Assembly: GCA_030704615.1 (NCBI GenBank)
Contig: CM060732.1
Location: 64,170,001 to 64,234,000 of the forward strand
Source: Takakia lepidozioides
Taxonomy: Eukaryota; Plantae; Bryophyta
Reading direction: 5' to 3'
Length of the DNA stretch: 64,000 nucleotides
Below, piece by piece: positions 1-40,900 of this stretch (its first letter is position 1; each line of letters opens with the position of its first letter). Below the pieces are notes generated by a model. The model searched no databases and had not been told where the DNA came from. It saw nothing but the letters and a program-made list of their open reading frames with translations. The position numbers and the translations under genes were made by a program.

Positions 1-109
1 GTCTCTGTCCTCCGGTGACAATGGGTCCAATGTCAGGCTCCCAATTGTCCTCCGTAACTGCAACCTTAAGTCTAGTGGGCTTAGAGGTAGAGGATGCGTC
101 CCGTGGTTG

Positions 110-1486
110 CTATGCCGCAACCTCTTGAGCAGTACTCCCTGCCTGCTCAGTCAATGACAAAGCCTCATCCTGCCCCATCATCTCATTCTTGAGGACCTCA
201 TCAACCCGAGAAGAATCCCCAACCTCATCCATCACAGCTGCCTTGGTTGCCAACTCCCTCTGAACCTCGAGCACCTCCCACGTGTGCCATGGATGTCTAC
301 ACCCCGTGGTCCTCGCCGGCTTGCCCCCACTAGCTGCCTGTACCGTCTTGGTAGACAGAGAGACCGTCAAGGGAAGTGCACTCCGCACTCTACGTTGCTC
401 AGCCATAGCGAAGCTGATAATCCAGGTCAAGCAATTGAGATCCATTGCTTGCCCCAACACCTGACGACGTGATGCCTCAGAAAGAGAAGGCACCGTCGTG
501 GTCCCAGTGGAAAACCCCATAGCCCGCTCTCGCTCGTCGGCATTAGGCTCCACTAACTGCTGCAACTGATCATCCCACAGGAGGCCAGGTCCACCATCCC
601 GAAAAGCATGGGATCCTGGGAAGCTGAGCAGTGTAGGTAATGCTGCTCGTGGTTGACCCACCCTGTTGACCACTGCCAAAGGCGAACGGTCATCGTGTCT
701 CACACGTTGAGACTGCCTCCCTGTGTCCAAAATATTGTCCACTGTGAGATGTGTTGGCCGCTGCACCCCATCAAATGCACGCTTGAGCAGTGCGGGTGGC
801 ATCAAGTTAGTCCACCATAGCCGTGGATGATGAGCCCGTGATCCCACTGCAGCTGCATCCAGCAGCACTGCTGACCCAAGCCACGACCGGACTTGATGCA
901 CACTGGCCATCACCCTGGCCCGAGAATCGCCCATCAGTGGCACATTCTCCAAGATGTATGCTGGAGATACAGCTTGATGAAGCTGCAAGTGGCGCAAAAT
1001 CCGTACCATCTCCCAAAACAGACCCGTCCTCGAGTCTCGCAATCCATTGTCATGCCCGGCTGATGAATGCCCTTGGCAGGGCCAACCTGCCACTACCAGA
1101 TCAATGGAGCCAACCTGCTCCAAATCCTGCGCCCCCAGCAACGAAATGTCTGCTGGCAAGGCTTGTTGGTATCCACGAACTGCAGACACTGACAACAAAT
1201 CAGGGTACTGTTGTACCAATTGAGCAACATGGCGCAGTGAGACGCATTGTGCAGTCTCATCTTTCTCCACATACAGGTAACGCCTTACCCGCACACCTGC
1301 CTATAGCACAGCAGCCAATCCGGTGCTGATCCCGCCAAACAAGTCCAGAAGGCAAATGTCTTCATCCGGATACTGCCACACAATAGGTGTGGTATCCAAT
1401 GGTGACAACTGAGGTGGTCCTAGTGCAATACCCGCACTCTCCTCCTCTCCTGACGGTACAAAAGCCTCTACCCAGGCTTGTTGCAC
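110..1486 (-). pseudogene. C5-cytosine DNA methyltransferase domain (DNMT3/DNMT6-like) embedded in the retrotransposon polyprotein
   Basis: Motifs in canonical order: I LLDLFGGISTG, II YLYVEKD, IV DLVVAGWPCQGHS (catalytic PC), VI YILENV, VIII RAHHPRLWWTN, IX ERERAMGF, X RRQVLGQAMD. There is an in-frame TAG at 1301-1303. Confidence 0.93.
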
Positions 1487-1501
1487 CCGTTGATCAGCAA
1501 C

Positions 1502-2209
1502 CTACTGCAAATCCTTGCTCGTACCCCACAATGGAGTGTGAGCAACCATGGCAGGCAACTCCGCCATACCATGCATGTCATCCTGCTCTGTTGGAGGTGG
1601 CACATCCTCTGCATGGGCATTGCCTTCCAGCAACTCTCCAGGCCAACTAACTGCAGCTGTAAAGGCGGCTAGTGTTGGCATCTTGCCCCGTTGGGCAGCC
1701 GCAATACCCCCAATGAATGTCACAGGGAGCTGTGCACGACAACCATCCCCTGATTGCCATCCAGGCCTGTAGGATGCTGACTCCTCCCAAAAGTCCAGGA
1801 TGAAGCCCATGGGATATAACACTGCCCCACCAATGAGGACATCATAAGAGACCGCGTCTGTCACAATGGCCTTGGCTCGCATCATTGAGCCATCTATAGG
1901 ATGATCCGGCTGCAGTCTAATGGCCAACTGATGTCATGTCATGCCCCGAGCCGGCTTTGATCCTCCCAGAGATGTTTGTATCTGGAAAGGACAAGGCTTC
2001 ATATCCGCCTCCATGAGGCCCAAACCTGCAATAGCAGCTTTGCCCAACATTACTGGCTGAGCTCCCGAGTCCAACAAGACCCGAAGTGGCCGGTACTTCT
2101 TGCCTGCCGGTCCACTCAATGAGAAAATGCCTCCCTGGTTGTCTAACAAGACAACTCCAGGTGTCACCATGGCACGCTCAAAAGCTGGCCTAGCTGGCAG
2201 CTCCGTCAA
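1502..2209 (-). pseudogene. Retropepsin-like aspartic protease of copy A
   Basis: RVLLDSGAQ active site and YDVLIGGAVL C-terminal motif; in-frame TGA at 1934-1936. Confidence 0.88.
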
Positions 2210-2224
2210 CTTGGCAGCTGCAGC

Positions 2225-4312
2225 TTACCATGACGCAGCCGTGGCAGTCTTGACCCTCAAATCCGAGGATCCCCCTGCCACTACACCTTCTACTAACTCC
2301 GCAGAAGATGAAGTGACCTCCCCACTCTCACAGAGTGTTGCTGCTAGTCTGAACACTCCAGCTGGTCTTACTTCCGGCGTCGCAATCATGGTCGCCGAGA
2401 ACAGTGGGGCTTGATACACAGAGGTGGCTGCCCCCAACAACACCCCGGCTGCGCTAGCCTTGGCAGCAGGTGTCAGTGCTGCACGTGTAGCTCTCCCCAA
2501 TGACATAGTAACCTCCGCCTCGGTAACAGTCGGGCGAGAACTAGGTGCCATGGATGGCGTCGACACTGTCTCCGCCAATGTGAATGACTGAGGAAGCCTC
2601 GCCTGACGGCTTGCCTCCCCACGCTGTGGATCCAATTCCACCTCTGCACCTCGTGGCTCAGGAATTCGTGCTGCTCCTCGAGTCACGGCTGCAGCAGACT
2701 CCACCTGCACTAGTGGTAGTGCTGCTCCGCACATGAATCCCATGCCTCCCATATCTCCTCCCTCAGGAGCAGGAGGCGGACCATCCCGCCTGGGAGCCGG
2801 TACCACCTGAGCTGTAGCCATGGCAGCGAGCCTCTGCTCTAGCTGCTGAAGCCGGTTGGCCATGCCTTGGTCAACACCCTGACCTCCGCGTCCTTGGCCA
2901 TGTTGAGCTTGCCCTTGGCCTGCACCTCGTGCTCGACCACCTCGTCCTCTCTGGGCTGGTCCACCTCGCCCCCGGCCACCATTGTTCCCTTGGAACTGGC
3001 CTGGGCGCAACTCAAGATGCAAGTCATAACACTGGGCATCTCCATGCCCATACTTGCCACAATGCCCACACTGCAACTGTGCAGGCTGTGCTTGTGCCGG
3101 CCTTCTGCCACTCTCTGGGCAATCTTTCTTGACATGGGGTCCTCCACATGTCCAACATACCACCCCTGGTTGCTGTTGGCCTGCAAAAGATGCCACGGGC
3201 CTCTGCACCTGAGGTCCCCTGTAAGCTCCATGGAACTTGGGTTGGGAAACCTTGCCCCTCTGACCACGCTGTTGGGTAGTACCTTGTGCCTGTGGGCTGG
3301 CAGCTGCGCCTCGTGCAGGCATGTCCTTGCCAAATCCAATGGTAACAACCCGCTCCTCCACCATGTTGAGCTCAATCTGCTCAGCCAACAGAAACACATC
3401 TGCTAATGTGGGTTGGGCTGCTTGTAACAGGGTTGCATCTTGCACCCTTCTCTTGAGCTCCTTGTCCAGAATTCCATACCAAAACTGTATTGCCAGAGCT
3501 TCAGTAACCCCTTGGGTCACACTTATCAAGCGCCTCATACGAGTGTACGCCTCTCGTAGGCTCTCACTGGGTTTGCGCTGGAAGTCTTGCAAACTTCGCA
3601 GCTTCTCAGTCCGTACACCTTGGTAGTTCCTCCGCAACTCTTGGAAGAACTCCACCACCGGGTTGAATCTAGGCACATGTGTTGTAGTCGTGGCAGGAGG
3701 AGTAGTAGCACCTTTTGAACTGGTACCACCTGCAGAAGTACCGGCACTACTTGTTCCACTACTAGTGCTGGCAGTGGGAGATATTGGTACTGATGCAGCT
3801 ACTGGTCGCGTCGTGCCTCAAGTAATGGAGACATAGTCAGGTGACCAATACATCCTCCACTCCTCAATCTCTGCGTCATGTCCTCGCATGAACTCGTGGT
3901 AATCGTCCATAGGCAGGCCTTCCAAATGCTGGAACAGTCTCTTCCACGCCATGAATGGGGTGAATAGCTGTGGATTGCGCATCTGCTGCAAATCACACCA
4001 GCTGTCGAACTCCTGGATAAAGTCATCCAACTCGATTGTGCCCACAGCTCCAGAGTACCTACGAGGCCCCTTGGTAGCTCCATACATCTCCTCCATGTCG
4101 TCCCACAACAATGGCGAATGAAACTGCACACCTGTTGATGAAGCCTCCGAATCTATGTCTGACTCTACAGTAGTTGAGGGTGGAGGTGAAGGTGGTCTGA
4201 ACCAAATACCTCGTCTTGTGAACCCACTCTCACTGTTACTACCTGTAGCCGTACTCCCCTCAAAACCCTTGGGTAACTCCGTGATGACACTCACAATGTG
4301 CACCTCCCCCAC
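2225..4312 (-). pseudogene. Gag with two CCHC zinc knuckles (copy A)
   Basis: Capsid-like PRRYSG..LDDFIQEFDSW and LQDFQRKPSESLREAYTRM; knuckles CWTCGGPHVKKDC and CGHCGKYGHGDAQC; RGG-rich tract. One in-frame TGA at 3818-3820; 3677-3817 is open. Confidence 0.88.
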
Positions 4313-4829
4313 GTGACACTATAATGCTCTAGTACTAATTCTAATAGTGACACGGGTGGGCAACTGTTGCAGTTTAAGGGTCATATCCCAGTGGCTCAGG
4401 GCACCTGCACCTGCATCCACCGCAAGAACTCATATGGTTGGCTGGTCATCAACCCAGTCTCACCATAGGAGAAACACTAGTGGTCTTGTTGGTCATCACT
4501 CCAGCCTCACCGACAGCATACTCTAGGATTGACCGGTGATCAAATCCGGCCTAATCCCTATGAAAGCAAGCGCCCACACAAAACCAACATGGCGCACAGT
4601 CAAGCATGCAGGTGTTGGGGGGGATCCAAACACAAGAAATCAAAACATCAACACCCCCACACCAAAATCCATCTGCAATGCGGATCCTGCAGAATATCCC
4701 AGCCCAAAACCCCGGACTGATTGGCCTCCACCAAGAGAGGCTTTGGCAACTACAAGTACAAAGTAATGAAAATAGTAAAGAGAGAGAGGGGAAGAATAGA
4801 AGCCCGACCAAGGAAGATCTAATCCTGAT

Positions 4830-5579
4830 CTATGCTATCAACTGCCAGACTTCTCTCAAAGTGCCTCGCTCTGCATGATGGTAAGGTGTAGGAGGTATAT
4901 CTATGTCCAGAAACCTGCCACTAACCTTGTCCCAAGCTACAGTAGCGCGCTCTAACCAACCCTCTTCCTCTTTCTGCCAGGTAGAGACAAAGCAATACTC
5001 CCCTATCTCCCGCTCACTGAACACTAAAGAAAACAAAGGTAGGGTCTGATAGTCTCTCAACTCGAAAGCTTTGAGACGGTTGCGGGTGTCCTCATTGCGA
5101 ATGACTGCATCTCCTTCACGCAGAACAAACTTGTCATTGCTAATGAACCCCCGCTCGTGGTTGCCTTGTGCAGAGCGTGTCCGACTGCAACCATGTCTGA
5201 TTGCACAAACTTGTGTCGCTCCTGCTCCTCTGCTCCAGTACACCACGGCCTTGTGGCTGAACACCTTGGTCCCCGGGGCTGTCTTTGGTTGTGTTCCAAG
5301 CCTAGCTTTCACCCACTTTGGTATTTCACCTACAGCTGCAGAACTGCTGGCTCCAACAGAGTTCTGACTGTCCAAGGCAATATTGAGGTCCTCAACGCCA
5401 ACTACAGCAGTGTGTTGTCCACTGCTAACGCCTGACTCCCAGTATGCAATCAACTCGTCCAACTGTTCTCCACTCAAATCAGTCTGAGTTCCTTGGGAAA
5501 CATAAACCTTGTCCCATTGTGTGCACAGGCTAAGAGACGAGACCTGCCCTTCAATTACGTCCTCATTTCCCCCAGCCAT
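4830..5579 (-). CDS. 249-aa ORF of unknown function upstream of gag; probable accessory ORF of the DNMT retroelement
   Basis: ATG-started, uninterrupted, same strand as gag and ~500 bp upstream of it; no domain recognised. Confidence 0.45.
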   Translation of the reverse strand: MAGGNEDVIEGQVSSLSLCTQWDKVYVSQGTQTDLSGEQLDELIAYWESGVSSGQHTAVVGVEDLNIALDSQNSVGASSSAAVGEIPKWVKARLGTQPKTAPGTKVFSHKAVVYWSRGAGATQVCAIRHGCSRTRSAQGNHERGFISNDKFVLREGDAVIRNEDTRNRLKAFELRDYQTLPLFSLVFSEREIGEYCFVSTWQKEEEGWLERATVAWDKVSGRFLDIDIPPTPYHHAERGTLREVWQLIA

Positions 5580-5806
5580 ACAAGGAGGACATCCACAGAT
5601 TTGTCTCTCATATAGACCAGAACAGGTTCTAGAAACAGAATTGTGGATCTTTCACGGCACACTCACACTCTAAAAATTCCATAGATTTTTAGCAGATTCC
5701 CAAAAACAAAAACCAGGTCTAGACAGGTAGATTTCCCCTTTCTGCAGCTGTCCCCTCAAAAATTGAGTCAAACGGAGCTCATTTGACAAAGATATGACCA
5801 ACCAGG

Positions 5807-5842: not shown

Positions 5843-6589
5843 AGACAAAACAAATACAAAGAAAACTCCTTTGTTTTTTATTTTTTTCAATACTTGTCTT
5901 GGTTCCCTGTTCCCTGGTTATCTACGGGTTCCCGAGCAGGTAGTTCTATGCTGTTTTGGGGTCGCCTCGCCATTACCATGGAGCAGCTCGATTTGTTAAA
6001 CTCCAATCGGCTTCTCCTCCATGATGGACCGCGTTGCCGCTTCGTCATCCCTCAGCTGCATTTGTTCAGTTATCCGTCCCATGTACTTATCACTGCTGAC
6101 TCTCAGGTCGTTTCCTGTAAGTTCCAGCTCGCATGGAGGGAGATTGGTGGCAGCCTGCACTTCAACTCGATTGCCAGACCATGTCTTGAGGTCTCTGTTA
6201 CACTCTCCACCCTTTCTTCCACTGATTACTTTGATGCTTGATTTCAATGATTGATCACGCATCCAATCCGTCCGTTGCTCTGTGACCAGTATGGGGCCGA
6301 CTGCTCTTGTTTCCTCCTGAATCGCTCATATATCTCCGAAACCCAAACTTAATCCACTCTCAGCCTTGATCTGTTGATGTGACCTTTTGTGTGCCGTATC
6401 TGTAGGTCATTTGTTCCTCCAAAAATCGTGCAGTTGAGTAATCTGTGTGATCTGCAACTGGTCTGATTTCCACACACTTGGAGCATTGGCCAATTAGAGC
6501 ATGACGAGTTCCTTCAGCCCTTCTTCACGGAAACAAGAACAACGGCAGAGCTTCAGAAGTTGGGCCTTCGGGCCTCAGAAATTCACGAA

Positions 6590-6960
6590 ATGCGCCACTG
6601 CCGTTTAGCAAGACAAAGTTCCCAGAGTCCAAGAGACTGGCCCCAACAACCCCTAGCTGGCTTGTGTTGCTAGACCAAATCACAGCTTGCGAGGAATTCT
6701 GAATCAACACTAGGTCACCATCCGATTTAAGCTCCAACGCACCCGTCGTATCCACCGGATATGTTGCGTTCAGGGTCCACACGATAGTTTGAAGCGAGAG
6801 CTGTGCATACCGGATGCCAAGATTGTAGGCAGTATCTACCGTGCCAGGGGCATAGAACCCTGGTGCCATTAGGAGATGAAATCCAGGGGTTCTGACCAGG
6901 GACAAGGCTTGCACCCAATCGAAATTATGCTTGGGTCTGATTGGTCGCCTGATTACCTGC
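6590..6960 (-). pseudogene. Bulb-type (G-type) mannose-binding lectin domain fragment, S-domain RLK-like N-terminus
   Basis: SLVPGQNPWISSPNG, then a frameshift, then GFY..YNLGIRYAQ..TIVWTLN..LELKSDGDLVL..IWSSNTSQLGVVGASLLDSGNFVL. Truncated, with no downstream kinase. Confidence 0.75.
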
Positions 6961-7460
6961 AAATAGACAGGCTGCCAAAATGAAGACTATCGTCGCTCGC
7001 GAACATAGTGCTGCACAGTAGTTCATCTCATCTCATGTTTAAAGAATACTCCTTCACTACACAGATTTGATCACCTGCGAGCTCATTTCCTCCAGAAACT
7101 CGCACTCTGTTCTCTGGAAAAAGTTGAAGAAGTTCTGGGGGTGATTATTGTCTCAGGGAGCTCTATTCCCGAAAGCTTGACTGAACGAGGGAAAGTGGTC
7201 CGGCGCAAAATCTCAGCGACATCAGCATTCCTCCGAAGTTCGTCTCCTTCATTGTGACCGGAAGTCAAATGCGTACACACAAAGCAAAAGCTGGTTTGAT
7301 GGATAGACAGGCTGACAGAGACAGCCCCTCATGTGCCATTGAGGGCGATTATTGTCGGCTTTGAACTGCTGCAGCGACACTTCGAGTGGTTCCCGCCTTC
7401 CTGTTATGCTCCACTAGGCACACATAGCCAGTCTAACTGCAGGCTCCCGTGACCAAGCTA

Positions 7461-9308: not shown

Positions 9309-9859
9309 TTGCTGCTCACAAAAATAAACAAACCACAAGGGAGAGAGAGTGCAGAAAAAGTTAAAAAGATTGTACTCATAAGACGTTGTTTGTCGTAGTC
9401 TCACTAGAAGCATTCGTGTCTTTTCCGAATCGACTGGGTGTCCGCCAACCACTCTGGGAACCATTTGGCAGTAAGCGGGACTACTGGAGAGTCGAAACGG
9501 ACAATGTGGGCCCACGGGGGCATTTCAGATGGTGGGCAGAAGTGGGGTCAACGACTCCGGAGTCGTAGCAAAAATTCGGGCTATTTAATTAATTGCGTAA
9601 ATACATAAAATTTGAAAAAGCGGAAATTACAAGTGGTCTAATTACTGCACATGCGACTAGAAATTTTTCATTCATAATTTGATTAATGGAATAAAGATAT
9701 TTATTCATTAAAGTGAATATGTAGTCGACTCAACGACTCCATGAACCACTGCGCATTGATTGCACCCATGATTCGGGGCCACATTTGCTGACGTGTGTTT
9801 CACAAAAACAGGTTAAGAAAATGTGGCCTTGGACAATAGATATTTTAATATGTACTGCC

Positions 9860-12800
9860 TCCACCTGGAAGTGACATGGAAGGTCCATGGTGACATCGTG
9901 AAAGCTGGAATTGTAGGGTTTGTCGTTCTGAACACCGCCCTAGTGGACATGTATGCCAAATGCGGTCGCATTGAAGATGCGAAGGTAGTGTTCGACTGTG
10001 GTTCAACGAGATGTGGTGTCGTGGAGTGCGATGATTGCATTGGCAACAAGGCAAGGATGTATGCATGATTGTGTAGAGGCAGTGATAGCTGAAGGAGCAG
10101 GATAGAGTGTGGGTCCATATTCATCCAAGAGGGTCGGATTTCAAGCTCCAAATTACCTATGGATCCCTGTGAATGATAGCTACAAAAAACCTCCAGGGGT
10201 AGATGGTTAGCTGGAAGCGGCAGCTGTAGCGGCACAGTTGATAAAATCAGGCACCTCAACCATGACCACAACTTCTGGAAGAGGATCAAGCGAGGGAGTC
10301 CACAATGCCTCTTCTGGCACTTATGGGCATGTGAAGATGCTTTATGAGGCAGGCAGACTGAAAGAGGCTCTACAAACTTTAAACCAAAGAGGCATTTCAG
10401 CAGATGTAGATACGTATGTGTGTCTCTTGCATAAGTGCATCAAGATGAAAGGCCTAGAAGTTGGAAAGCAGGTGCACATTCACATTGTCCAAAGTGGATT
10501 CATGCCGAGCGTTTTTCTACTCAACAACCTTGTCAACATGTATGTTAAGGGGAGCATCATGGATGATCACCAAGTGTTCAACACAGAATGCCTCAACGAT
10601 CTTTGATCACGTGGAATATAATGTTGGCAGGATTACCAAGCATGGGCGTGGTACGAATGCTTTGGAGACCTGTGAGCAAATGATGCGCGAAGGGGTGGAG
10701 CCCAACCACATCGCGTTTGTATGTGTTTGAAATGCGTGTGCAAGCCTGGAAAAGGGGAACGAGGTCCATGGTGACATCGGTCAAAGCTGGAATTGCACCG
10801 GATGTCATTCTGAACACTGCCCTGACCTGGACATGTATGCCAAATGTGGATGCATTGGAGGATGCAAAGGGAGTTTTTGACACTATGGCTGAACGAGATG
10901 TGGTGTTGTGGAGTGCGATGCTTGCAGGGTATGCACAACAGGGACGTGGGATGGAGGCTTTGGAGACCTATGATCCAATAATGGGGGAGGGGGTGAAGCC
11001 CGACCACTTTGTGTGCATTTGCAATGTTTGTGCAAGCCTGGCAGCCCTGGACAAGGGTAAAGAGGTGCATGGGGTTATCATCAAAGCTGGAATTGTACCA
11101 AATGTCATTCTAAACACCTCTGGAAAAGGGGAAAGAGGTCCATGGCGACACCTTCAGAGCTGGAATGGTACCAAATGTCAGTATGAACCATACCCCGGTG
11201 GACATGTATGCGAAATGTGGGTGCATCGAGCCTGGACGAGGGCAAAGAGGTGCATGGGGTATCATCAAAGCTGGAATTGTACCAAATGTCATTATGAACA
11301 CTACTCTGGCAGCTCTGGAAAAGGGGAAAGAGGTCCATGGCGACATCTTCAGAGCTGGAATTGTACCAAATGTCATTCTGAACCATACCCTGGTGGACAT
11401 GTTTGCAAAATGTGGGTGCAAAGGGATCTAGGATCTAGGATGCAAAGGGAGTGTTCGACACTATGGCTGAACGAGATGTGGTGTCGTGAAGTGCAATGCT
11501 TGCAAGGTATGCACGGCAGGGACGTGGGATGGAGATTTTGGAGACCTATGAGCAAAGGATGGGGGAAACACATCATGTTTGTGTGCATTTGCAATGCTTG
11601 TGCAAGCCTGGCAGCCCTGGAGAAGGGCAAGAGGTGCATGGGGATATCATCAAAGCTAGAATTGTGCCAAATGTCAATCTGAACACTGCCCTAGCAGCTT
11701 TGGAAAAGGGGAAAGAGGTCCATGGCGACATCTTCAGAGCTGGAATTGTACCAGATGTCATTCTGAACAATACCCTAGTGAACATGTTTGCAAAATGTGG
11801 GTGCATCTAGGATGCAAAGGGAGTGTTCGACACTATGGCTGAACGAGATGTGGTATCGTGGAGTGCGATGCTTGCAGGGTATGCACGGCAAGGACATGGG
11901 ATGGAGGCTTTGGAGAGCTTTGAGCAAATGATGGGGGAATCACATCATGTTTGTGTGCATTTGCAATGCTTGTGCAAGCCTGGCAGCCGGCCTGGAGAAG
12001 GGCAAGAGATGCATGGGGATATCATCAAAGCTGGAATTGTGCCAAATGTCAATCTAAACACTGCCCTGGCAGCTTTGGAAAAGGGGAAAGAGGTCCATGG
12101 TGACATCTTCAGAGTTGGAATTGTACCAGATGTCATTCTGAACAAAACCCTGGTGAACATGTTTGCAAAATGTGGGTGCATCTAGGATGCAAAGGGAGTG
12201 TTCGACACTATGGCTGAACGAGATGTGGTGTGCATTTGCAATGTGCGTGCAAGCCTGGCAGCCCTGGAGAAGGGCAAGAGATGCATGAGGATATCATCAA
12301 AGCTGGAATTGTGCCAAATGTCAATCTGAACACTGCCCTTGCAGCTTTGGAAATGGAGAAAGATGTGCATGGCGACATCTTCAGAGCTGGAATTGTACTA
12401 GATGACATTCTGAACAATACCCTGGTGAACATGTTTGCAAAATGTGGGTGCATCTAGGATTCAAAGGGAGTGTTTGACACTATGGCTGAACGACATGTGG
12501 TGTCGTGGAGTGCGATATGATGTGCTTGCAGGGTATGCACAGCAGGGATGTGGAATGGAGGCTTTGGAGACCTATGAGCAATGGAAGCACATCATGTTTG
12601 TGTGCATTTGCAATGCTTGTGCAAGCCTAGCAGCCGACCTGGAGATGGGCAAAGAGGTGCATGGGGATATCATCAAAGCTGGAATTGTACCAAATGTCAA
12701 TCTGAACACTGCCCCGGCAGCTTTGGAAAAGGGGAAAGAGGTCCACATGGTGACATCTTCAGAGCTGGAATTGTACCAAGGTGAATGCCTGTTAGATTAC

Positions 12801-15800
12801 CAGATGCAAAGAGGTGCATGGTTGCATCGCCAAAGGCAGCAGCTGCAGCGGCACAGTTGATAAAGTCAGGCACCTCAACCATGACCACAACTTCTGGAAG
12901 AGGATCAAGAGAGGGAGTCCACAATGCCTCTTCTGGCACTTAGGCATGTGAAGATGCTTTGGCAGGTAGACTGAAAGAGGCTCTACTGACTTTAAACCAA
13001 GGAGGCATTTCAGCAGATTCAGATACGTATGTCTGTCTCTTGCATAAGTGCATCAAGATGAAAGGCCAAGTGAAGCTAGAAAGCAGGTGCACACTCACAT
13101 TATCCAAAGTGCACGCCAGATATTTTTCTACTCAACACCCTTGTCAACATATATGTTATGTGCGGGAGCATCATGGATGCTCACCAAGTGTTCAACAGAA
13201 TGCCTCAACGATATTTCATCACATGGAACACGATGCTTGCAGGGTGTGCACAACAGGGGCGTGGTATGGAGGCCTTGGAGAATGTGGTGAGGGCACCTTC
13301 TTCTTCGACCTATTTCAGCCTGTTTTTCCCTCTCATCAGACTCGGCCCTGAATTTACATATTGAATCGTCAAGGACAATGTGGTGAGGGCACCTTCTTCT
13401 TCGACCTATTTTAGCCTGTTTTGCCCTCTCATCAGACTCGGCCCTGAGATGTATATTGAATTCTGTAAGTTTTGGGTGGATCTGTGGTGGTTTGGAATGA
13501 CTATGACAAGTAACTGCCGATGTGGCAGCATGAAAGTATCCAAAACAGATAACAGAGATGAGGAGTAGGTGTGGAATGAATACTTTGTTGACCCCAGTGA
13601 ACGGTGGAACAACCGAGGCAAAAAGTTGAATGCCTATTAGATGACAGAGAGTAGCAGACGTAATTCAGCATAGGAACTAGTGTGATTGGGTGTTTCCTAG
13701 GTTGTCATTGTCAGCTGCTAGCAGCAAGGGCAAAGATGAATGCGTGATTTGTGCAGAGGCATGGATAGCTGAAGGAGAAGGGATAGAGTGTGGGTCCAGA
13801 TTCATCCAAGAGGGCCGGACTTCAAGCTCTAGATTACCTGTGATTCCATGTGGATCAATAGCTACAAGAAACCTAAATGGGTACATGGTCAACTAAAGGC
13901 AATAGCTGCAGCGGCACAGTTGATAAAATCAGGCACGTCCTTAACCATGACCGCAGCTTCTGAAAGAGGATCAAGAGAGGGCACAATGCCTTTTCTGCGG
14001 GGCATGTGAAGATGCTTTGTGAGGCAGGCAGACTGACAAAGGCTCTAGGTCTGGAAGCTGGAATCAGATGCACACTCACATTATCCAAAGTGGATTCATG
14101 CCAAATGTTTTTTCTACTCAACACCCTTGTCAACATGTATGTTAAGTGCGGGAGCATCATGGATGCTTGCCAAGATTTCTACAGAATGCCTCAGCGATCT
14201 TTGATCATGTGGAATATAATGTTGGTAGGATTTACCAAACATGGGTGTGGTAGGAATGCTTTGGCGACCTATGAGCAAATGTTGCGCAAAGGGGTGAAGC
14301 CCAACCACATCACGCTTCCGCATGTTTGCAATGCGTGTGCAAGCCTGGGACCTCTGGAAAAGGGGAAAGAGGTCCATGGTGACATCATCAAAGCTAGAAT
14401 TGTACCAGATGTCATCTTGAACACTCCCCTGGTCGACGTCTATGCCAAATGTGGGTGCATTAAGGATGCGAAGGGAGTTTTCAACACTATGGCTGAACCA
14501 AATGTGGTGTCATGGAACGCGATGCTTGCAGGGTATGCACAGCAGGGACATGGTATGCAGGCTTTGGAGACCTATGATCAAATGATGGGGGAAGGGGGGG
14601 CACCTTCTTCAATAGCACAACGGCTACAAGTGGGTAGATGGTCAACTGGAAACAGCAATGGCAGCAGCACAATTGATAGAACAAGGCCCACTGCTAATGA
14701 AGGTACCTTCTTCAACATATTTCACCTTGTTTTCCCCTGCTGTCAGAGTCGTCCCTAAATTTTCATGTTGAATTCTACAAGTTAGCTCATTGGTGGATCT
14801 ATTGTGGTGTTGGAGTGATTTTGACATGTTACTGCCAATGTGGTTGACAGGAAAGTATCGAAAAACAGATAATAGAGATGTGGAGAAGCTCTGGAATGAA
14901 TACGGTTCTGACCCTAGTCAATGGTGGAACAATCCAGGCAAAAAGGTGAATGCCTGTTGGAAACAGATGCAAGTCAGCATAGGAACTAGTGTGATAAGTA
15001 GGGTTGGGGTGTTTGCTGGAACAATTCTAGAGTGTTATTGTCAGCTGCTAGCATCAAGGCAAGGATGTATGCATGATCTGTTCAGAGGCATGGATGGCTG
15101 ACGGAGTAGGGAGCAGTGTGGGTCTAGATTCATCCAAGAGGGCCGGATTTCAAGCTCCAGATCGCCTACAATTCCCTGTGGAAGCAGCACACACCTCGCA
15201 CACACAAGAGGTCCTCTTGGGTGCATGGTCAGTCAAATCCTCCATGGGTCATGACACAAGGTCGAGGACAATGTGGTGAGGGCACCTTCTTCTTCGACCT
15301 ATTTCAGCCTATTTTTCCCTCTCATCAGACCCAGCCCTGAATTTGCATATTGAATGCTGTAAGTTAGCTCATTGGGTGGATGTGGGGTGGTTTGGAGTGA
15401 CTTTGACAAGTTACTGCTGATGTGGCAGCAGGAAAATACCCAAAAATAGATAACAAGATGAAGAGAAGCTTTGGGATGAACACTTTCCGACCCCATTCAG
15501 TGGGGGGACAATGGAGAGAAAAAGGTGAGTGCTTGTTCGACTGCAGAGAGAAGCAGTTGCAATTCAAAATTGGAACTACTGTTAAGTCCTAGGTTGGGGT
15601 ATTTTTCTGGAAGAACTTCACGCCGTCATTGTCAGCTGCTAGCAGCAAGGTTGAGGGATGTATTCATGATCTGTACACGGGCAGGGATAGCTGAGGGACC
15701 AGGGATAGAGGTCCATATTCATGTTCAGGTGCAGGCTGAGGGATCAATAGCTAAAAGAAATCAGCTGCAGTAGATGGTCAATTGTTGCAAGTGCAAACAG

Positions 15801-16140
15801 TAGCGGTAGCACAATTGATAGAATGAGGTGTTGCACCTTCCTCAACACATTTCAGCCTGTTTTTCCAAATAGGGTTGGGGTGTAAGAACAAATCTAGGCT
15901 GTCATCATCAGCTGCTAGCAGCAAGACAATGATATATGCATGATTTGTGCTGAGGCATAGATAGTTGAAGGAGCAGGGATAGAGTGTGGGTGCAGATTCA
16001 CCCAAGAGGGCCGGGTTTCAAGCTCCAGATTGACGCTATAGCTACAACAAACCTGCAGATGGTCAACTGGCAGCAGCGGCACAATTTATAAAATCAGACA
16101 CTGCTAATGAAGGCATCTTATTCAACACATTTCACCTATT
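9860..16140 (+). pseudogene. Tandem array of decayed PLS-class PPR repeats interleaved with OSB-type PDF-motif exons
   Basis: Repeated ALEKGKEVHGDI.KAGIVPNV.LNTLV.MYAKCG.I.DAKGVFDTMAERDVVSW..MLAGYAQQG units with many stops and frameshifts. The block 10215-10600 recurs at ~12830-13240 and ~13900-14250. PDF exons at 10119, 13550, 13800, 14860, 15128, 15450 and 15996. Confidence 0.88.
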
Positions 16141-17920: not shown

Positions 17921-19018
17921 TGTTAGAGGACTGTAGGGGACTTAGACACTTATACGGGATCTGTAGGGTACCCTTAATTTTTGCACAGACTGAGACAAAC
18001 AGGAACCTTAGGGGTGACAGCAGCGCACTGTAGAGGGGGGTTACATAGCCCACACAGCCGACACAGCAGTCACAGCCCACACAGCCAACACAGCCCGTCA
18101 CAGTCGTCACAGCCCACACAGCCCACACAGCCGTCACAGCCCACACAGCCCACACAGCCTGTCACAGTCGTCACAGCCCACACAGCCCACACAGCCCGTC
18201 ACAGTCGTCACAGCCCACACAACCCACACAGCCGTCACAGCCCGTCACAGTCGTCACAGCCCACACAGCCCACACAGCCCGTCACAGTCGTCACAGCAGA
18301 CACAGCCCACACAGCCAGTCACAGCCCGGCACAGCCACACAGCCAGTCACAGCCTGACACAGCCAAACACAGCCAGTCACCGCTTGACACAGCTGTCACG
18401 ATAATAGGGAACGAAGAGTAGGACAGGGAACGACTGTGGGGAACAACACCTGTGAAGGGAACATGTTAATTCACATACGACGGTTAGAGAGGGAAACGGT
18501 TAGAACCGCGGATAGGAGGATAAAGGGAGAAACGGGGAATGAAGAAGGGATTATGATTCGGGGGAGGAGGATTTCGGAGAGAGACGGGAGCGGAAGTCGG
18601 TGAGCACGATGAAGGAGGAAAGAGGATTAGTAGATGCTTGTTATATGCAAAGCTGTAGGGATATTGTAGAGGAGAATAGAGACACAATGGCTTCGGCCTG
18701 ATACCTGATAAATCATAATCTGATACTTATACGATACAATCACAATGTGTAGAGAGATCTGAGTGAAGCTGTGGATTGAATGGAGGAGTGAAGGAAACCG
18801 ATAAATTGATGAAGCAAACTGATACTTAATTATCAATGGTAAGGTAGCTAAGATGAATGCGGAAAAGGAAACAAATAGGAAACACCCCCATGATACACTA
18901 GCTGTAGGTCATGACTGATTGTTCTGCGCGGGCTGAGTACTTAGAGATTTCCAACTCTTCTATCTTGGAGTTTCCGCCTCGGATAGCGAAGGGATGGGTG
19001 AGTAAAAGCCGCGCGACA
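17921..19018 (+). repeat. 5' LTR (1098 bp)
   Basis: TGTTAG...GCGACA; by eye identical to the 3' LTR apart from the internal repeat array and a 1-bp indel. Confidence 0.97.
18047..18400. repeat. LTR-internal tandem array of 9-10 bp CACAGCC(CA/GT) units (shorter copy at 30383-30663)
   Basis: Seen directly. Confidence 0.92.
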
Positions 19019-19606
19019 TTTGGCGACCATACTGGGGACCTGGGACATGAACAACCAGATGTGACAGGCATTTGGTGGGATCATGGTGGTTGGACCATTA
19101 AAGAATTTGAAGTGAATCAAATTCCCTGTGGAACGAAGGAAGAAAGATTGTCCAAACAATTCTTTCAAAGGTTCTTGGAATTGCCAGACGGATGTAAAGA
19201 AAATATTCTTAAACGAGTGCATGATGCTGATCCAGAATGGGGTCTGGAGAAAGGAGTGATAAAGATTTATCAGGTAGCCTGTAGAGGAAGAGCACGTTGG
19301 TTACCAACATTAGTTTATGTGATAGCGTTGCTATCCATTAAACGAGTAGAGTTTGAAGGCTGGGAAGAAAGAAAGGTGAATGTTTATACTCATATGCATG
19401 AAGAGCTTGTACTGGTAAAGAATTGGATTCCAAAGGATATTTTGTGGATCAAACTCACACCAAGAACAGTTTTTCAGACTTGTTTGCCATATGGTTATAT
19501 GGTAACGGAGACTTCAAGTATAGCCAAGGGTGCATTGAAGCTTGAAAGAAATCCAGGCATATACGAGAGATATTACAGAAGAGAGTTTTGGTTATTGCCA
19601 CATTAA
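18911..19606 (+). CDS. 231-aa extra ORF upstream of gag (starts in the LTR, crosses the PBS); unknown function
   Basis: Open frame ending 21 nt before the gag ATG; no domain recognised. Confidence 0.5.
   Translation: MTDCSARAEYLEISNSSILEFPPRIAKGWVSKSRATFGDHTGDLGHEQPDVTGIWWDHGGWTIKEFEVNQIPCGTKEERLSKQFFQRFLELPDGCKENILKRVHDADPEWGLEKGVIKIYQVACRGRARWLPTLVYVIALLSIKRVEFEGWEERKVNVYTHMHEELVLVKNWIPKDILWIKLTPRTVFQTCLPYGYMVTETSSIAKGALKLERNPGIYERYYRREFWLLPH
19021..19038 (+). promoter_or_regulatory. Primer binding site, probably tRNA-Arg(ACG)
   Basis: TGGCGACCATACTGGGGA, 2 nt after the 5' LTR; resembles the plant tRNA-Arg PBS TGGCGACTCCACTGGGGA. Confidence 0.8.
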
Positions 19607-19627
19607 AAGAAATGAAAGACATGGGAC

Positions 19628-22768: not shown

Positions 22769-22791
22769 AAATCCTAGAAGAACCAGCCACT

Positions 22792-26046: not shown

Positions 26047-26374
26047 AGGAAGAAGAAACGGAAATTAATTTAAAAATAGACACGTGGAGGTCAGGGTGCG
26101 ACACACAGCAGAGAATGAAGTGCAAGGACAGGTGTCAAAAAGAAAAAGGACAAGAACGGCCGTCAAAAGGGATGAAAGGCGGGCCCATTAATGAATACGG
26201 AAAAAGGGAAACGGAACGAACGGCAAGTACAGAAAAGCCGAATTCATGTCGCATGTGTGATCCTAGTGGACTATCCAACAGGGAAAGTCCACTAAAGAAG
26301 ATAAAAGTTAAAATCCAGTCACAGCGGATACAGCCAATAGAAAACCAGAAAATGATCAAGAAAATGGAGGGAAA

Positions 26375-30217: not shown

Positions 30218-30238
30218 ACCGTGAGGACACGGCTTTTT

Positions 30239-30252
30239 GAGGGAGGAAGGGG
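30239..30252 (+). promoter_or_regulatory. Polypurine tract
   Basis: GAGGGAGGAAGGGG just before the 3' LTR, preceded by a CCGTG-AGGA-CACGG hairpin (30219-30232). Confidence 0.88.
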
Positions 30253-30256
30253 TAAA

Positions 30257-31281: not shown

Positions 31282-31449
31282 GTTCCCCATGAACAACCCA
31301 CGTACATTCACTTGTCAATGCCGGATAATATCGATGAGGATTGGGATTGATTGAAGTAGCGGCGACAGTCTTGTGCACCGTAATGGGGTAGATGGCATTA
31401 TGGGCCATGCACATGACAATTTTTTATTTTTGCTAATATGGCGGGATGT

Positions 31450-34795: not shown

Positions 34796-37700
34796 ATCTT
34801 CGAACAACTCCATAGTCCGTGACTGGATCAATGATATCTCCATGTCACTATACTGGTAGGGCCTTTAAAAGATTGACGTGTCACTTGCCAAATCAATACG
34901 AATCTTTTTGCCCTTCAAACTCCCCAAATCCTTCAAACCGAAGGCAAAGCGATTTCTCTAAGCTTTTAGAAATCGATGGATCCTCCGTCTCTCTCCTCCG
35001 GTGACTGTAGGTCCAAGATCTGGTTCCCAATTGTCCTCAATGACTGTAACCTTGGGTACACCGGGCTTGGAGGTAGGAGACAAATCCTTTGGTTGCTAGA
35101 TAGCAATCTCTTGGGCCTTGTCCGCCCAATCTGACTGTGGCGTAGCCTCCACTTGCTCCGCCATAGCCACCTTGAGAACATCCTCTGAGCAAGAAACATT
35201 CTCAACCTCTTAAAAAACCTTGGCTACCTTGGCCTCCAACTGATCCTCAGTCCATGGCTCTCCCCACTCCTCATACTGCTGCTTGAGAGATCCAATGACT
35301 CTCTTTTTGCGCATCTCATCCCACATCTGCCATTGGTGTTTGCAACCCACGATCCTGTGCTCGCCCCCACTCACTGCTGCAATCGTCCCGGTTGGCAGGG
35401 AGGATGCACCATCCAATGGAAGTGCCGAAGTAGCCACCACTCCTTGCAATCTCCGTTGCTCAGCCATGCACAAGGCAATGATCCATGTCAAGCAATTTAG
35501 ATCCATTGCCTGACCCAACACTTGACGACGTGATACCTCCGACAGACTGTCTCCCTCCCTCCTTGGAATTGGCCGGTTTTATCAGTGTTAATTTCCTGTT
35601 TTTCCATCTATACCGGATGGATCCATTGTCTCAAAAAGCATGAGACGAGGGAAAGCTCATGAGCGTAGGCAAAGCCAAACGTGGCTGCCCCACTCGATTG
35701 ACCACCGCCAGAGGTGGACGGTCATCATGTCGCACCATCCCTTTAGTCCAAAATGCCCTCAACCGTGAGATTGGGTGGTAGTTGAATGGAATTGTATGCT
35801 CTCTTGAGCAGCTCTGGTGGTGCAAGATTGGTCCACCACAATCGAGGTCGATGCGCGCGTGATCCCACCGCTGCTGCATCCAATAACACCGCCGATCCAA
35901 TCCAAGACCGCACTTGATGCACACTGGCCATAACCCTGGCCCGAGAATCCCCCATAAGAGGAACATTCTCCAAGATATAGCCTAGAGGTTGCACTTGCCC
36001 CGTCTCCAAGTCCCGCAACACTCGCAACATCTCCCAAAACAAATGCGATCGTGCATCATGCAAGTCATTCCCATGACCTGCGGGAGAGTGTCCTTGGCAA
36101 GACCATCCAGCTATCACCAAGTCAATGGCACCATGCCGGTCCAAATCATCCGCCCCCAACAAGGTAATGTCTGCTGGCAAGGCCTTTTGATACCCTTGAA
36201 TTGCTGAGAGAGGCAACAACTCAGGATACTGGTGTGTGAGCAAGACGATGTGGCGCATAGAAATATGCCGAGCTATCTCATCCTTCTCCACGTACAAGTA
36301 CTTGTGTACTTTAATCCCTGCTTGCAACACTCCTGCAAGCCCAGTGCTCATGCCTCCAAACAGGTCTAGCAAACAAATCCCTGAGTCAGGTGGTTGCCAG
36401 ATAATGGGCACTGTGTCCAAAGGAGCTAACTGAGGAGGTCTAGGTGGTGTCACTGAACTCCCCTCACCCACCGATGGAAAGGCCTCCTGTCATGCTTGTT
36501 GCACACACTCACCTACTACTCGTTGCAAATTCCCAACCGTACCCCACAGTGGAATATGCACAGGCACATGAGGAAGCAAATCAGCCTTGTATGCCAATTG
36601 TTTGTCCTCATCAGGTGATGGCCTATCATCTGCATGGCTATTGCCCTCCAAGAGCTCACCACCCCAAGCCACTACCCCTGAGAATGCAGCCAATGTGGGC
36701 ATCATGTTCCTATGATCCACCGCTACATTCCCAATAAACCGCACTGGGAGCAGTGCACATCGGCCATCTCCTGACTGCCATTCCGGTCTATAGGATGTCG
36801 TTTCTTCCAAAAAGTCCAGAGTGAATCCTATGGGGTATAACACCGCCCCACCAACAAGCACATCATAAGACATCGCGTCCGTAACAATGACTTTAGCTCT
36901 CATGACTGAGCCTTCCGTAGGATGATCCGGCTGCAATCGAATGAAGAGCTCATGACATGTAATCCCTCGTGCCTTCTCTGAACCGCCCAAAGATGTTTGA
37001 ATTTGGAAATGACAAGGCTCCAAATTCGCCTTTGTAAGGCCCAAGCCTGCAATTGTTGCTCTTCCCAACATCAATGGCTGTGTTCCCGAGTCCAACAAGA
37101 CCCGCAGTGGCCTATACCTCCTCCCGGCTGGGCCACCCAACTGAAACACACCATCCTGATTGTCCACCAGGATTACCCCATGAGTCACCATACTACGCTC
37201 AATGGCTAGCCTAGCTTGCAACTCCTGCAACCTTGCAGCTGCCGTTTGCCATGGCGCAGCTGTGGCTATCTTCACCCTTGAATCCAGAGCATCCATGCAC
37301 TGCACCTTATCCGCTATCCCCGCAGATAGTGCCGATGCATCACCACTGTCACAGAGTGCAACTGCCAATCTAAACACTGCAGCTAGCCGCATCCCCGACA
37401 TTGCAATTGTCGTGGCAGAAAACAATGGAGCTTGGCAAATTGCCGTAGCCGCCCCCAACAATGTACTGGCTGCACCTTGCTTTGCAGCACCACCCACTGG
37501 CATTTCCCGAGCTACACCAACTCTCCCCAATGGCAATCGTGGCTCTACCTCTGACATACTTAGGCGAGCGGGTGCCATCGATGACGTAATTGGCACTGTC
37601 TTAGCCAATGTGAAAGACTGTGGAAGCTTTGTCTGTCAACTTGCTTCCCCCTTTTGTGGATCAAAATCCACATCCGCTTCTCTTGGCTCAGAAGCACGAG

Positions 37701-37900
37701 TTGTTGCTCGAGTGATAGCAGCTGTAGCGTCCACATGTAATGGTCCTGCAAGTGCGGCTCCACACATGAAGCCCATACCAATCTGGTCTTCCCTAGGCAT
37801 CGGAGGTTGTGCAGGTGGGGCTTGAACCTCAGGCCTTGGAGTTGGCGCCACATTAGTAGTGGCCATGGCAGCAAAACGTTGCTCTAGCTGGGCAAACCTA
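34796..37900 (-). mobile_element. Second, more decayed copy (B) of the DNMT-carrying Ty3/Gypsy element: late Gag-PR-DNMT-RT N-terminus, cut by the CACTA insertion
   Basis: Colinear with copy A (RVLLDSGTQ; LLDLFGGMSTG; IAGWSCQGH; YILENV; RAHRPRLWWTN; LGQAMD). 34800-34985 reads ...RFAFGLKDLGSLKGKKIRIDLASDTSIF*RPYQYSDMEISLIQSRTMELFE, i.e. the start of a Gypsy RT. Confidence 0.9.
35440..36471 (-). pseudogene. C5-DNA methyltransferase domain of copy B (PC changed to SC, frameshifted, short foreign patch at ~35550-35625)
   Basis: ORFs 35743-36471, 35631-35966 and 35210-35521. Confidence 0.9.
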
Positions 37901-40900
37901 TTCCTAGTACTCCAGTCCAGTTCCCAGTACCCTAGCCCAGTTTCCAGTATCTGGTAATCCAGTCCAGTTTCCAGCATTCCAGTATTCAAGTCGTGTTCCA
38001 ATATCTTGTACCCTTGTTCATTGTTATAAAGATCGCATTGATTCATATTTACTCATCGTGCATACGGCCACGCCGACCTTGACTTCTTGTCTAGTCTTGT
38101 ACCTCTAGTTTGATCTCTTGTTTGTGTTCAGTCATGCTCTCGTCCTTGACAACATATACAATTTTTTGAAAGCTCTGCTCGCAGACATCAGTGTGCTCAT
38201 TTTGGGTATGCACAGGCGCATACAGGTTTTCATGGCTAGATCCTTACACTCAAACTTGCGTCTTGTTTTGCAGGCTATGCAGGCGTATAAGGGTTTTGCA
38301 GTCATGGTATTGAATATCTCAATCAGCGCGAGTGTGTTCTATCATGGTATGCGTAGGCGCATAAGCATATTGAACAATAAAGCTACTCTCTGCAGACCTG
38401 TAAGCCGTGGGCATTTTACCATATGCGCAGGCACATATGCATTATGGACTCATGAACCGGATTCTTGCAAACAGTAGAGGCACAGATAGTGAACATACCT
38501 TATGTTTTCTGCCTCTTCCGCGATTTCTTCATGTAGCTCCCGAACCTTCATCATCCATAAAGCCAGCTTGCGCATTCATCCTTTCTATCACCGTAACGGT
38601 TCGCTGTCGAAGCGTTGTGTAATACAATTTTTTTTGTCTTCTTCTAGCTGTGTATGTCTCCAGGCTCTTCAACTATCACGAAACTGTTTGCAAGGACCTT
38701 AGATTTGTAGGGTAGACGTCGTTGCCGGTGAAGTCCTCATGTGCGGTGTACTATGGCATACAGGTGCAGCGAGTGTGAATGTCGTGATGGGCTATGACGT
38801 GAAGATGACATTGAAGTGCCCATGTAGAACCTTAGTTTTGAATTTTGGGGTGGATGAATGTATTTAGTGTAGATGAATGCATGATGATAGGTCTGGATGG
38901 TGTTGTGAATATTGGATGTACCATGATTGATATAATTAGATAGATAGTTCTGGTTTTTCAACTTATGAGTTATAGCTTGGTGGTTGGTACACTACACATT
39001 ACTCATGAAGTTTTGAGTTTGAGCCTAGGCCGAGATGAGCGGGGGAAAGGTGTACATAATGCTTCATATATATAATTTCATCCCATCGCTGTTCGATTTG
39101 GATGTGTGGTAAGGTATATGAGATATCTCTATCTGGATTGTACTCACTGTTGATAAAGATTTTTAGGTTTATTATCCTCGGCGAGTGCATATATGTGTTG
39201 TCTAATGGTTGCTGTTCTTTCGTATGTTGCTAATGGAAATGTGCAAATGTAGATTGAATTGGTTCAAATGTAGTAGTCAGCTACCAGCTGGATATTAAAA
39301 TTTTCATGATGGTTATCAAAGAGGTTCTTAAATTCCAATTCCCAAGTGTTATATTCATAAAAATAAAATTGAATTTGAAAAGCATTATGGTCGTCACATC
39401 ATCCTTAACCACGTCATTGTTGTCATTTTAAGTTGCCCAGACAAAATAAAACAGAATTTTTAGGATGCCAGCTAGTGCTCAAAAAAAATTTCTTGGCAGG
39501 ACAATAGGCCACGTCGATGGTTTTGGCTAAACCTCAATACCGTTCTAGCCAAGGCAATGGCAAGAGATATCGGCAAAACCTTAAAACTATTTTAGGCAAA
39601 AAAAAAAAAAAAACACGTTAATAGGTATTATTTATTTAAACCTAAATATCATTCAATTACCCAAATAGCCATATTGTTAATAGATAAAATTGAATATTAT
39701 TTTTTAATATAAATTCAAAACAATTTGGTACCTCGGTTAGAGGGTGTTGTAATGTTCAGTTGTTACGTTTCTTCATTGCCACCCAAGTGATTGTCACCTA
39801 TATCTTTATATTTTCATGGCCTTACAAGATTATTTCTTCATTCTTTTTTGTGATTTGTTCATATAATTTAATTAATCATTAGAATAGCTTAGAATTGCGT
39901 GAATAATTTTGGGTTCAAATCTTGTCACTATTACCTTTATATTTGTTTTCATGGCTTTACAAGGTTTTTTTTTTTTTTTTTTTTTCTTTCTTTCTTTCTG
40001 GAATTTGATTAGAATAGCTCAAAATTACATTAAAATAAATAAATAAATAAAATTTGTACACTTGGTGGTTCATAATCGAGATTTTTTTTTTCTATTATAC
40101 AGAATACATATCTATCACATTGATTACAAATAGTTTACAGTAAAGCATGGTTTTTAGAATGAGATAATAAGGTGAGCATCCACCATTGATAATATCAGCT
40201 TTGGTATTCACAATAACTTTATTTTTGTACAGGGGTTCGAACCCTCATAGGTATCCACTATAGCACACAAAATTATGGCCCAAAGGCCTTTAATATTAAC
40301 CAAAAATGATTAAAAATAATGGAGTTTTGGAAATGTAATATAATAAATAATTCGATTGAATAGATTTTGAACTTATTGGAATGATGAAATCTGAGTTGAA
40401 AACTTGATATAAGATAGTGGTATATTATTATAAACAAATATTTTAATTTTTTCTTTAAGTTATAGATAAATATAACATATTTATTCTGATAATAATAATA
40501 AAAACTTTGCTTACATAAATATCATATTTAACATATTTATAGTTTTTGAGATGTAATATGACAAATAACTTGATTGATTGGATTTGAATTGGAGAGCATG
40601 ATACAATATGATAATATGTTGTTTTATTATTATATAATATATAAAGATTAATATTTATATAATATTTATTATAATTACGAACATATAAATTAATAAATTT
40701 AAATAAACAAGTAAATAATTTTTATATATGTTTGAAATATGAAGATGTAATAGTAAAATATATGTTGATATATTTGAAATAGGTAAATAAATATGTAGAA
40801 AAAAATAAAATAAAACATGATTGATTCAAATTGGATATTTATTGATCGATGATGGATAGAATGATAATTGATTTATATAGATGATAGGTGATTAATGTCG

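Follow-up and report, generated by a model that had tools for sequence, protein, structure and literature searches.

Among described retroelements that carry a C5 cytosine DNA methyltransferase (DNMT) of their own, the closest to the element reported here is KnitGypsy-Dnmt3 of Klebsormidium nitens (PMC5890265). The pertinent passages of that 2018 work leave open what retrotransposons do with their own DNMT, and report that its one plant-lineage enzyme showed no activity and that two SymbioDIRS-Dnmt3 enzymes performed de novo CG methylation in yeast. SymbioDIRS-Dnmt3 and SymbioLINE-Dnmt, both of Symbiodinium (PMC5890265), resemble the present element in being retroelements that bear a C5 methyltransferase but differ in backbone, which is DIRS (tyrosine recombinase) or LINE, and the EpiLTRs of Cymbomonas and Euglena (10.64898/2026.05.21.726589), alike in the same respect, differ in carrying a DNMT4-related enzyme together with DAM and a chromodomain. 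A DNMT3-type catalytic domain is also present in host genes of non-flowering plants (PpDNMT3a/b; PMC6453930), where DUF3444 accompanies it; in the element described here the domain lies within a Gag polyprotein, and DUF3444 gave no Pfam match in the window copies or the relatives scanned. The DNA analysed, referred to as the window, is a stretch of 64,000 nucleotides from Takakia lepidozioides (GCA_030704615.1, contig CM060732.1, positions 64,170,001 to 64,234,000 of the forward strand). It holds two decayed copies, A and B, of a Ty3/Gypsy retrotransposon in which Gag, protease (PR) and a DNMT3-like domain share one frame that ends in UAG ahead of the reverse transcriptase (RT). The preferred reading, to which a probability of roughly 0.7 is assigned, is that this UAG is leaky, that the DNMT is made at capsid levels, and that it likely acts by methylating the DNA newly made by the element itself.

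Copy A occupies 1..5788 on the reverse strand, its 5′ end being approximate and its left end running off the window at base 1; its RT, ribonuclease H (RH), integrase (IN) and 3′ end are located beyond that base, and the domains visible in the window are Gag, PR and DNMT only. A frame of 1439 codons (reverse strand, 4318 to 2) is interrupted by six stops, at window coordinates 3820, 2227, 1936, 1504, 1303 and 112, compared with a minimum of 42 and a mean of 62 in 500 base shuffles of the same frame. It encodes Gag with two CCHC knuckles and then, behind a Gly/Ala-rich spacer, an aspartic protease, which a linker connects to the C5 methyltransferase. A first-pass annotation, made from the letters alone, had correctly described Gag with its knuckles, the protease and the DNMT as lying in one frame. 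The Gag capsid region (3353..4096) matches that of the Marchantia element P0004 at 64%, the zinc knuckles (3157-3119 and 3070-3029) are a motif reading, and the protease (1748..2176, with LLDSGA at 2077-2060) matches P0004 at 56%. The DNMT domain (392..1357, 73% to P0004) scores 48-51 bits against PF00145, for which the cut-off is 22, and the Pfam check proposed by the same annotation thus succeeds for the methyltransferase but falls short in copy A for Gag (Retrotrans_gag, E 0.009) and protease (Asp_protease_2, E 0.015), both below the Pfam cut-off; the protease region of the homologous P0022 is above it. Motifs I (1348-1319), II, IV (WPCQG, 1105-1070), VI (ENV, 955-941), VIII (838-806), IX (550-512) and X (457-434) follow one another in linear order on the reverse strand. 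The domain is broken by an internal stop, the first Arg of its motif VIII is replaced by His, and copy A is no longer able to make its protein.

Copy B (34799..37938, reverse strand) is cut off at both ends and comprises the end of the Gag region, the protease, a frameshifted DNMT (36378-35453), the linker and the start of RT, with 68% DNA identity to copy A along 2.6 kb. Besides the frameshifts, Ser replaces the motif IV Pro in its DNMT, so that the methyltransferase, at first described as complete, is fully intact in neither window copy. The same linker does lead into RT, as had been noted: about 80 RT residues, 44% to the RT start of the intact metagenomic relative L030 (E 3e-20), precede the cut-off near 34799. 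In L030 a frame of about 2,400 codons runs from Gag to a C-terminal PHD finger (Gag-PR-DNMT, stop, RT-RH-IN-PHD), its sole stop being TAG CAG TTA, and Gag-PR-RT-RH-IN, complete there and in many other loci, supports the assignment to Ty3/Gypsy and shows the linkage to RT and integrase in these relatives. A DIRS or tyrosine-recombinase element was considered and is ruled out by the rve and Integrase_H2C2 domains of L030.

The sixth stop of the copy A frame (112–110) is a conserved family feature and not decay. At the end of the Gag-PR-DNMT frame copy A reads UAG CAA CCA (104..112, reverse strand), a readthrough context of the tobacco mosaic virus (TMV) type, and the frame that follows (2..109), a spacer and the first RT residues, aligns with copy B and the relatives just before RT. 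Copy B has the identical UAG CAA CCA at 35090..35098 (reverse strand); the residues around the stop differ between the two copies. A UAG at the DNMT/RT junction is found in eight lineages, namely copy A, copy B, the Sphagnum-type group (TAG CAA CCC), L029/L030 (TAG CAG TTA), L031 (TAG CAA CCA), L033 (TAG CAA CTA), L057 (TAG CAA TCA) and the decayed L078 (TAG TAA TCA). The hexamer CAR-YYA follows it exactly in six of the eight (four of the six beyond the window copies) and with one mismatch in the remaining two, and the second codon after the stop varies among Pro, Leu and Ser. This codon pair has a background frequency of 0.3-0.6% (8/2405 and 9/1438), and none of seven other stops checked bears it. 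CAR-YYA after UAG drives TMV readthrough in plants, the consensus being UAG-CAR-YYA (PMC2754532), and a stop separating gag from pol is described as very rare in long terminal repeat (LTR) elements (PMC3441728).

Further observations bear on the constancy of this stop. No variant at a frequency of at least 1% is listed at 104-112 among the 1078 and 978 family contigs of X1 and X2, two runs of one sample, in which the neighbouring sites 92, 95, 102, 115 and 116 vary. At least two of the other five stops of copy A are peculiar to it and relatives are open at the codons aligned with the rest; the view that all six stops reflect decay holds for these five but not for the sixth. Among the Sphagnum-type loci the junction stop is present in 26 of 27 (20 TAG, 6 TAA). 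The metagenomic predicted proteins P0018-P0024 and P0171-P0175 end 114-134 residues past the DNMT, and the Marchantia copies presumably have their stop at the same junction, a placement drawn solely from where their proteins end. A shared RNA structure after the stop was sought and none was found: z was -2.75 for the Sphagnum type and -0.3, -1.0 and -1.2 for three further lineages. The description of the DNMT as part of the polyprotein ahead of RT is thus right as to its place between protease and RT, but the UAG parts Gag-PR-DNMT from RT and the domain is not simply one of Pol. The junction context predicts, with high though not complete confidence, that the UAG is read through to make Pol.

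The order Gag-CCHC-PR-DNMT-RT-RH-IN-PHD recurs wherever the contig reaches far enough among the best 80 of 253 metagenomic loci, and elements of the same order are found in Marchantia polymorpha (P0003, P0004, P0009 and more), Calypogeia fissa, Sphagnum fallax, S. troendelagicum, S. jensenii, Riccia sorocarpa and Closterium. Of twenty top representatives looked up by name, four carry that of an organism, Closterium in each case, and the searches for relatives brought back no named K. nitens sequence. After thinning from 190 to 151 rows, a DNMT tree built with FastTree (local support only, K. nitens and host DNMT3 being outside it) places the stop-bearing elements in one clade of 31 rows (support 91), within which the window copies join elements of Calypogeia, Marchantia and Sphagnum (support 95). 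With the same scope, a tree of RT+RH in 45 rows groups the elements by the same architectures. One locus piece labelled plain Gypsy sits within the stop clade of the RT+RH tree. A sister clade (L039-L081 except L057, L058 and L078, with P0187, P0255 and the Closterium sequence P0396) has the DNMT and no junction stop; in the same metagenomes it likely has a frame change between Gag and protease, and in its motif IV Glu replaces Pro; of the 120 rows that lie outside the stop clade, 71 have this Glu. Among 145 new representatives from a profile search the DNMT lies between RH and IN in 81 and after Gag or PR or before RT in 14, the other 50 having the DNMT alone. The group with the RH/IN position (P0030-P0044, P0243-P0254 and most of P0293-P0433), of which one named relative is Monoraphidium, forms one side of both trees, and its presence beside the PR/RT group indicates that the wider lineage has two DNMT positions.

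Sequence and fold searches of the PDB with the DNMT both return DNMT3A/B on top (human DNMT3A and DNMT3B), which upholds the first-pass view of a DNMT3-like enzyme; the fold model (predicted local distance difference test, pLDDT, of 67) is without motif I, and all listed fold matches are DNMT3A/B. Motifs I, IV (PC), VI (EN), VIII (RxR), IX and X keep their linear order family-wide, and in the stop clade all 28 rows covering the catalytic Cys and all 31 covering the Glu have it, with Arg kept almost throughout. The ratio of nonsynonymous to synonymous substitution (Ka/Ks, Nei-Gojobori) of the DNMT is 0.12 between copies A and B and 0.13 between L029 and L030, compared with 0.16 and 0.11 for the protease of the same pairs and near 0.8 for the tail after the DNMT domain; between two decayed Sphagnum-type copies it is 0.40 for the DNMT and 0.50 for RT. 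Judging by these ratios the DNMT is under purifying selection, and because it is, the element represents an old family and not a one-off capture.

In the preferred reading most ribosomes would stop at the UAG and give Gag-PR-DNMT as the main product, which would place the DNMT at capsid levels, and a minority would read through to the full polyprotein with RT-RH-IN-PHD. Both products would assemble into the particle, within which the protease would free the domains; this release and packaging are considered probable. Many DNMT copies would then methylate the cDNA ahead of integration, and integrase, perhaps guided by the PHD finger, would insert methylated cDNA; the element may thereby be taken for host DNA or hold its new insertions silent. 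That cDNA methylation is what the DNMT does is put at somewhat better than even. Several points weigh against the reading as a whole. In the Sphagnum type, which is the best-sampled lineage, 24 of the 27 loci read CAA CCC, a single base away from the consensus, and an ATG directly behind this hexamer would permit re-initiation there. The lineages in which the junction was counted are related and the counts are not independent, several Ks values are near saturation, and the trees have FastTree local support only and hold neither K. nitens nor host DNMT3 sequences. The sister clade keeps its DNMT with no stop at this junction, and capsid-level DNMT is thus not needed in general. The Klebsormidium enzyme failed to show activity in yeast, in an experiment whose result its authors call inconclusive (PMC5890265).

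The alternative that survives best is that the DNMT acts elsewhere than on its own cDNA: on the insertion site, on sister copies or host chromatin in trans, or on element RNA, its bulk synthesis with Gag then serving self-restraint or chromatin editing. CG depletion, looked for as a sign of self-methylation, was not seen (observed/expected 0.47 in copy A, 0.50 in copy B and 0.55 in L030), the ratio of the DNMT-bearing copies being no lower than that of a neighbouring plain Gypsy (0.26), and this absence of extra CG loss counts both against cDNA methylation and for another target. An excess of DNMT over RT would fit a role in trans no less than packaging, the PHD finger at the end of the integrase has the fold of a chromatin reader, and a slowdown of benefit to the host is listed as an option in PMC5890265. 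In the other direction, fusion to Gag and protease should, by established LTR-element biology, bring the DNMT into the particle where cDNA is made, and the predicted fold is that of DNMT3, a DNA enzyme. A target other than the cDNA is regarded as rather unlikely.

Less probable again is that the UAG is a hard stop, with Pol arising through re-initiation or from an RNA that is spliced or has a start of its own, and CAR-YYA retained as inherited baggage. Some plant LTR groups do have two-ORF layouts, with one open reading frame for Gag-PR and one for Pol (PMC6317226), and the one-off Sphagnum-type context, with its AUG two codons downstream, would suit such a stop. Against it, the same frame is open on both sides of the UAG and continues past it in all intact cases, and in the six exact lineages only the degenerate positions of the motif vary while the encoded residues change. 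The first Met past the stop falls inside RT in L030 and in copy B, leaving no usable AUG ahead of RT, so that AUG re-initiation cannot yield a whole RT there.

An algal or contaminant origin of the contig, which the first-pass annotation had named among the findings that could overturn it, is very improbable. Related elements do occur in Closterium and Monoraphidium, but the window contains an intronless PPR-E-E+-DYW (PLS-E-DYW) gene (50623-53604, reverse strand), whose C-terminal region is mostly 65-71% to Ginkgo, moss and conifer proteins, and a B-lectin fragment adjoining the 5′ side of copy A (6525-6986, reverse strand). The nearest named DNMTs to the window copies are those of liverwort and moss (peat-moss) elements, at 64-69%, and chromosome-scale contigs of Marchantia and Sphagnum carry copies independently; judged by the PPR gene, the B-lectin and these nearest relatives, the window is land-plant DNA, and the relatives of the element make a bryophyte likely. 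A further refuting outcome then foreseen was that a host gene had been captured once; the reading that a dead element picked up a host DNMT3, or else a phage methyltransferase, in a single event finds a footing in the broken state of both window copies but scarcely merits consideration against 453 clusters in the DNMT profile search (50% identity, E up to 1e-30), retroelement domains beside the DNMT in 95 of the 145 new representatives, the agreement of RT and DNMT trees, the lack of the DUF3444 that host plant DNMT3 carries, and listed phage matches just 23-26% identical. A search of viral contigs returned one unrelated phage DNMT and nothing further.

The ends and repeats of the element are known from relatives alone and are not visible for the window copies. 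Relatives begin with TGTCA and end with GACA, exact 4-bp target duplications flank seven of the nine relative loci examined, and in place of two plain LTRs the repeats follow the order A-internal-polypurine tract-B-nn-A-B, at L036 5799-15009, L041 5565-14879, L051 5202-14871, L067 5250-14769, L045 159-8728 and L030 8656; L036, with A-coding-B-A-B repeats, belongs to the stop clade. The B-nn-A joint is a palindrome-like CACGACA-nn-TGTCA common to three divergent families. Some copies end after the first B (A-internal-B only) and have a 4-bp target duplication (L017), and the mirror product A-B-A-internal-B was not seen among the repeat-bearing relatives. Circles with one or two LTRs, cut within the LTR at B-nn-A, would give both end forms. 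Troyka, considered for its split repeats, has CG...CG ends and a 3-bp duplication and occurs in animals only (PMC12440569), and is ruled out by the TG...CA ends, 4-bp duplications and plant hosts of the present elements.

For copy A itself, the contigs of the family in run X1 have a summed depth of 0.35-1.2 million across 1-5642 and of 1-4 thousand past 5860, values that are not copy number, and a TGTCA at 5788 resembles the 5′ terminus of relatives; together these suggest a 5′ end near 5788. Run X1 has 47,976 contig records on a 6.5-kb stretch, 31,817 of them with at least 95% likeness, which suggests that the family of window 1-5800 is very abundant and fairly young, contig depth again not being equal to copy number. 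The 22 near-fixed transition sites listed comprise 10 CHG, 9 CHH and 3 CG, against a CHG background of 22%, an excess that is a weak sign of host CHG silencing. A stop-free leader frame of 273 codons (4833..5651, reverse strand) lies within the high-depth zone, with one family contig bridging to 4410. It has no match at E 10 in Pfam or the PDB and no counterpart among seven relative leaders checked, its fold model is unusable (pLDDT 34), and the one lead is a weak one to Fe/2OG-dioxygenases (Atlas score 0.86, low recognition); in one contig from another sample the frame has a one-base insertion.

Nearer to Gag, a 12-base block with an in-frame ACG at 4282-4280 (4277..4288, reverse strand) is conserved between copy A and the Sphagnum-type family, whose flanks to either side of it do not align. 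The codon at this site is ACG in 9, ATG in 2, AGA in 2 and ACA in 1 of the 14 covering loci (15 aligned), and P0276 starts with Met at the aligned position. On this pattern the ACG may well be a non-AUG start of Gag, by a slight balance of probability. A broader scenario is held only tentatively: an ancient green-plant retroelement lineage would have brought a DNMT3 from algae into land plants, and in its branch with land plants an ACG start and amber readthrough would load every particle with capsid-level amounts of the enzyme, copies would arrive methylated, integration would proceed through 1- or 2-LTR circles cut at a palindromic site within the LTR, and the enzyme would help to shape the host methylome where the family is very abundant.

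Elsewhere in the window an ordinary Gypsy element with no DNMT (17921-31284, forward strand, LTRs 92% alike) has open gag (19616-22768) and pol (22714-26046) frames and an extra ORF of 1301 codons (26312-30217) with no Pfam match above the cut-off. A degenerate tandem array of PPR-derived sequence occupies 9800-16100, and long open frames of 209-520 codons at 60762-62324 and 62594-63940 (reverse strand) and within 43816-47702 (forward strand) have no Pfam match at E 10.

The placement of the stop predicts that the DNMT is made with Gag and in large excess over RT. It also implies that genes of this kind annotated in Marchantia and Sphagnum as 'DNA (cytosine-5)-methyltransferase' are transposon ORFs, whose gene models either remove the presumed leaky stop by splicing or terminate at it. 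Since the family is present in Marchantia polymorpha, which serves as a genetic model and for which methylation mutants exist, the question of what a retrotransposon does with its DNMT becomes testable in a land plant. The soybean element SIRE1 uses TMV-type readthrough for its env-like ORF. The signal here has the same stop and hexamer as TMV-type (type I) amber readthrough but is sited between DNMT and RT, and no report of readthrough at such a junction was found in the literature searched, most subscription papers lying outside its reach. Nor was a report of a Gypsy-DNMT3 element in land plants found, the elements described in that literature being algal, although the supplementary trees of PMC5890265, PMC12344493 and 10.64898/2026.05.21.726589 could hold copies; the latter two refer, in the passages concerned, to 'streptophytes', citing the 2018 work, and the main text of the REXdb survey (PMC6317226) contains no mention of methyltransferase, PHD or Marchantia.

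Compared with KnitGypsy-Dnmt3 through its published description and not through a joint tree, the present element is alike in being a Gypsy whose DNMT3-like domain is unrearranged and subject to purifying selection (PMC5890265) and in its DIRS-like A-coding-B-A-B repeats, which occur here in the relatives L036, L041, L045, L051 and L067. It differs in host, which is a land plant, and in layout: the DNMT of KnitGypsy-Dnmt3 shares an ORF with RT and RNase H, whereas a UAG lies between them here and the sister clade alone is uninterrupted. Although it works like KnitGypsy-Dnmt3, the lack of that single ORF sets it apart from an ordinary representative of the kind. The gain of the DNMT was treated as specific to the K. 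nitens lineage (PMC5890265); relatives here are found in Closterium, liverworts and peat mosses, which with the land-plant genes of the window supports the first-pass proposal that the Klebsormidium system extends into embryophytes, and they reach as far as a chlorophyte, with another domain order. A spread of this width speaks for an old lineage and against a peculiarity of Klebsormidium, and what is new here is the conserved UAG, in a readthrough-type context, that separates Gag-PR-DNMT from RT.

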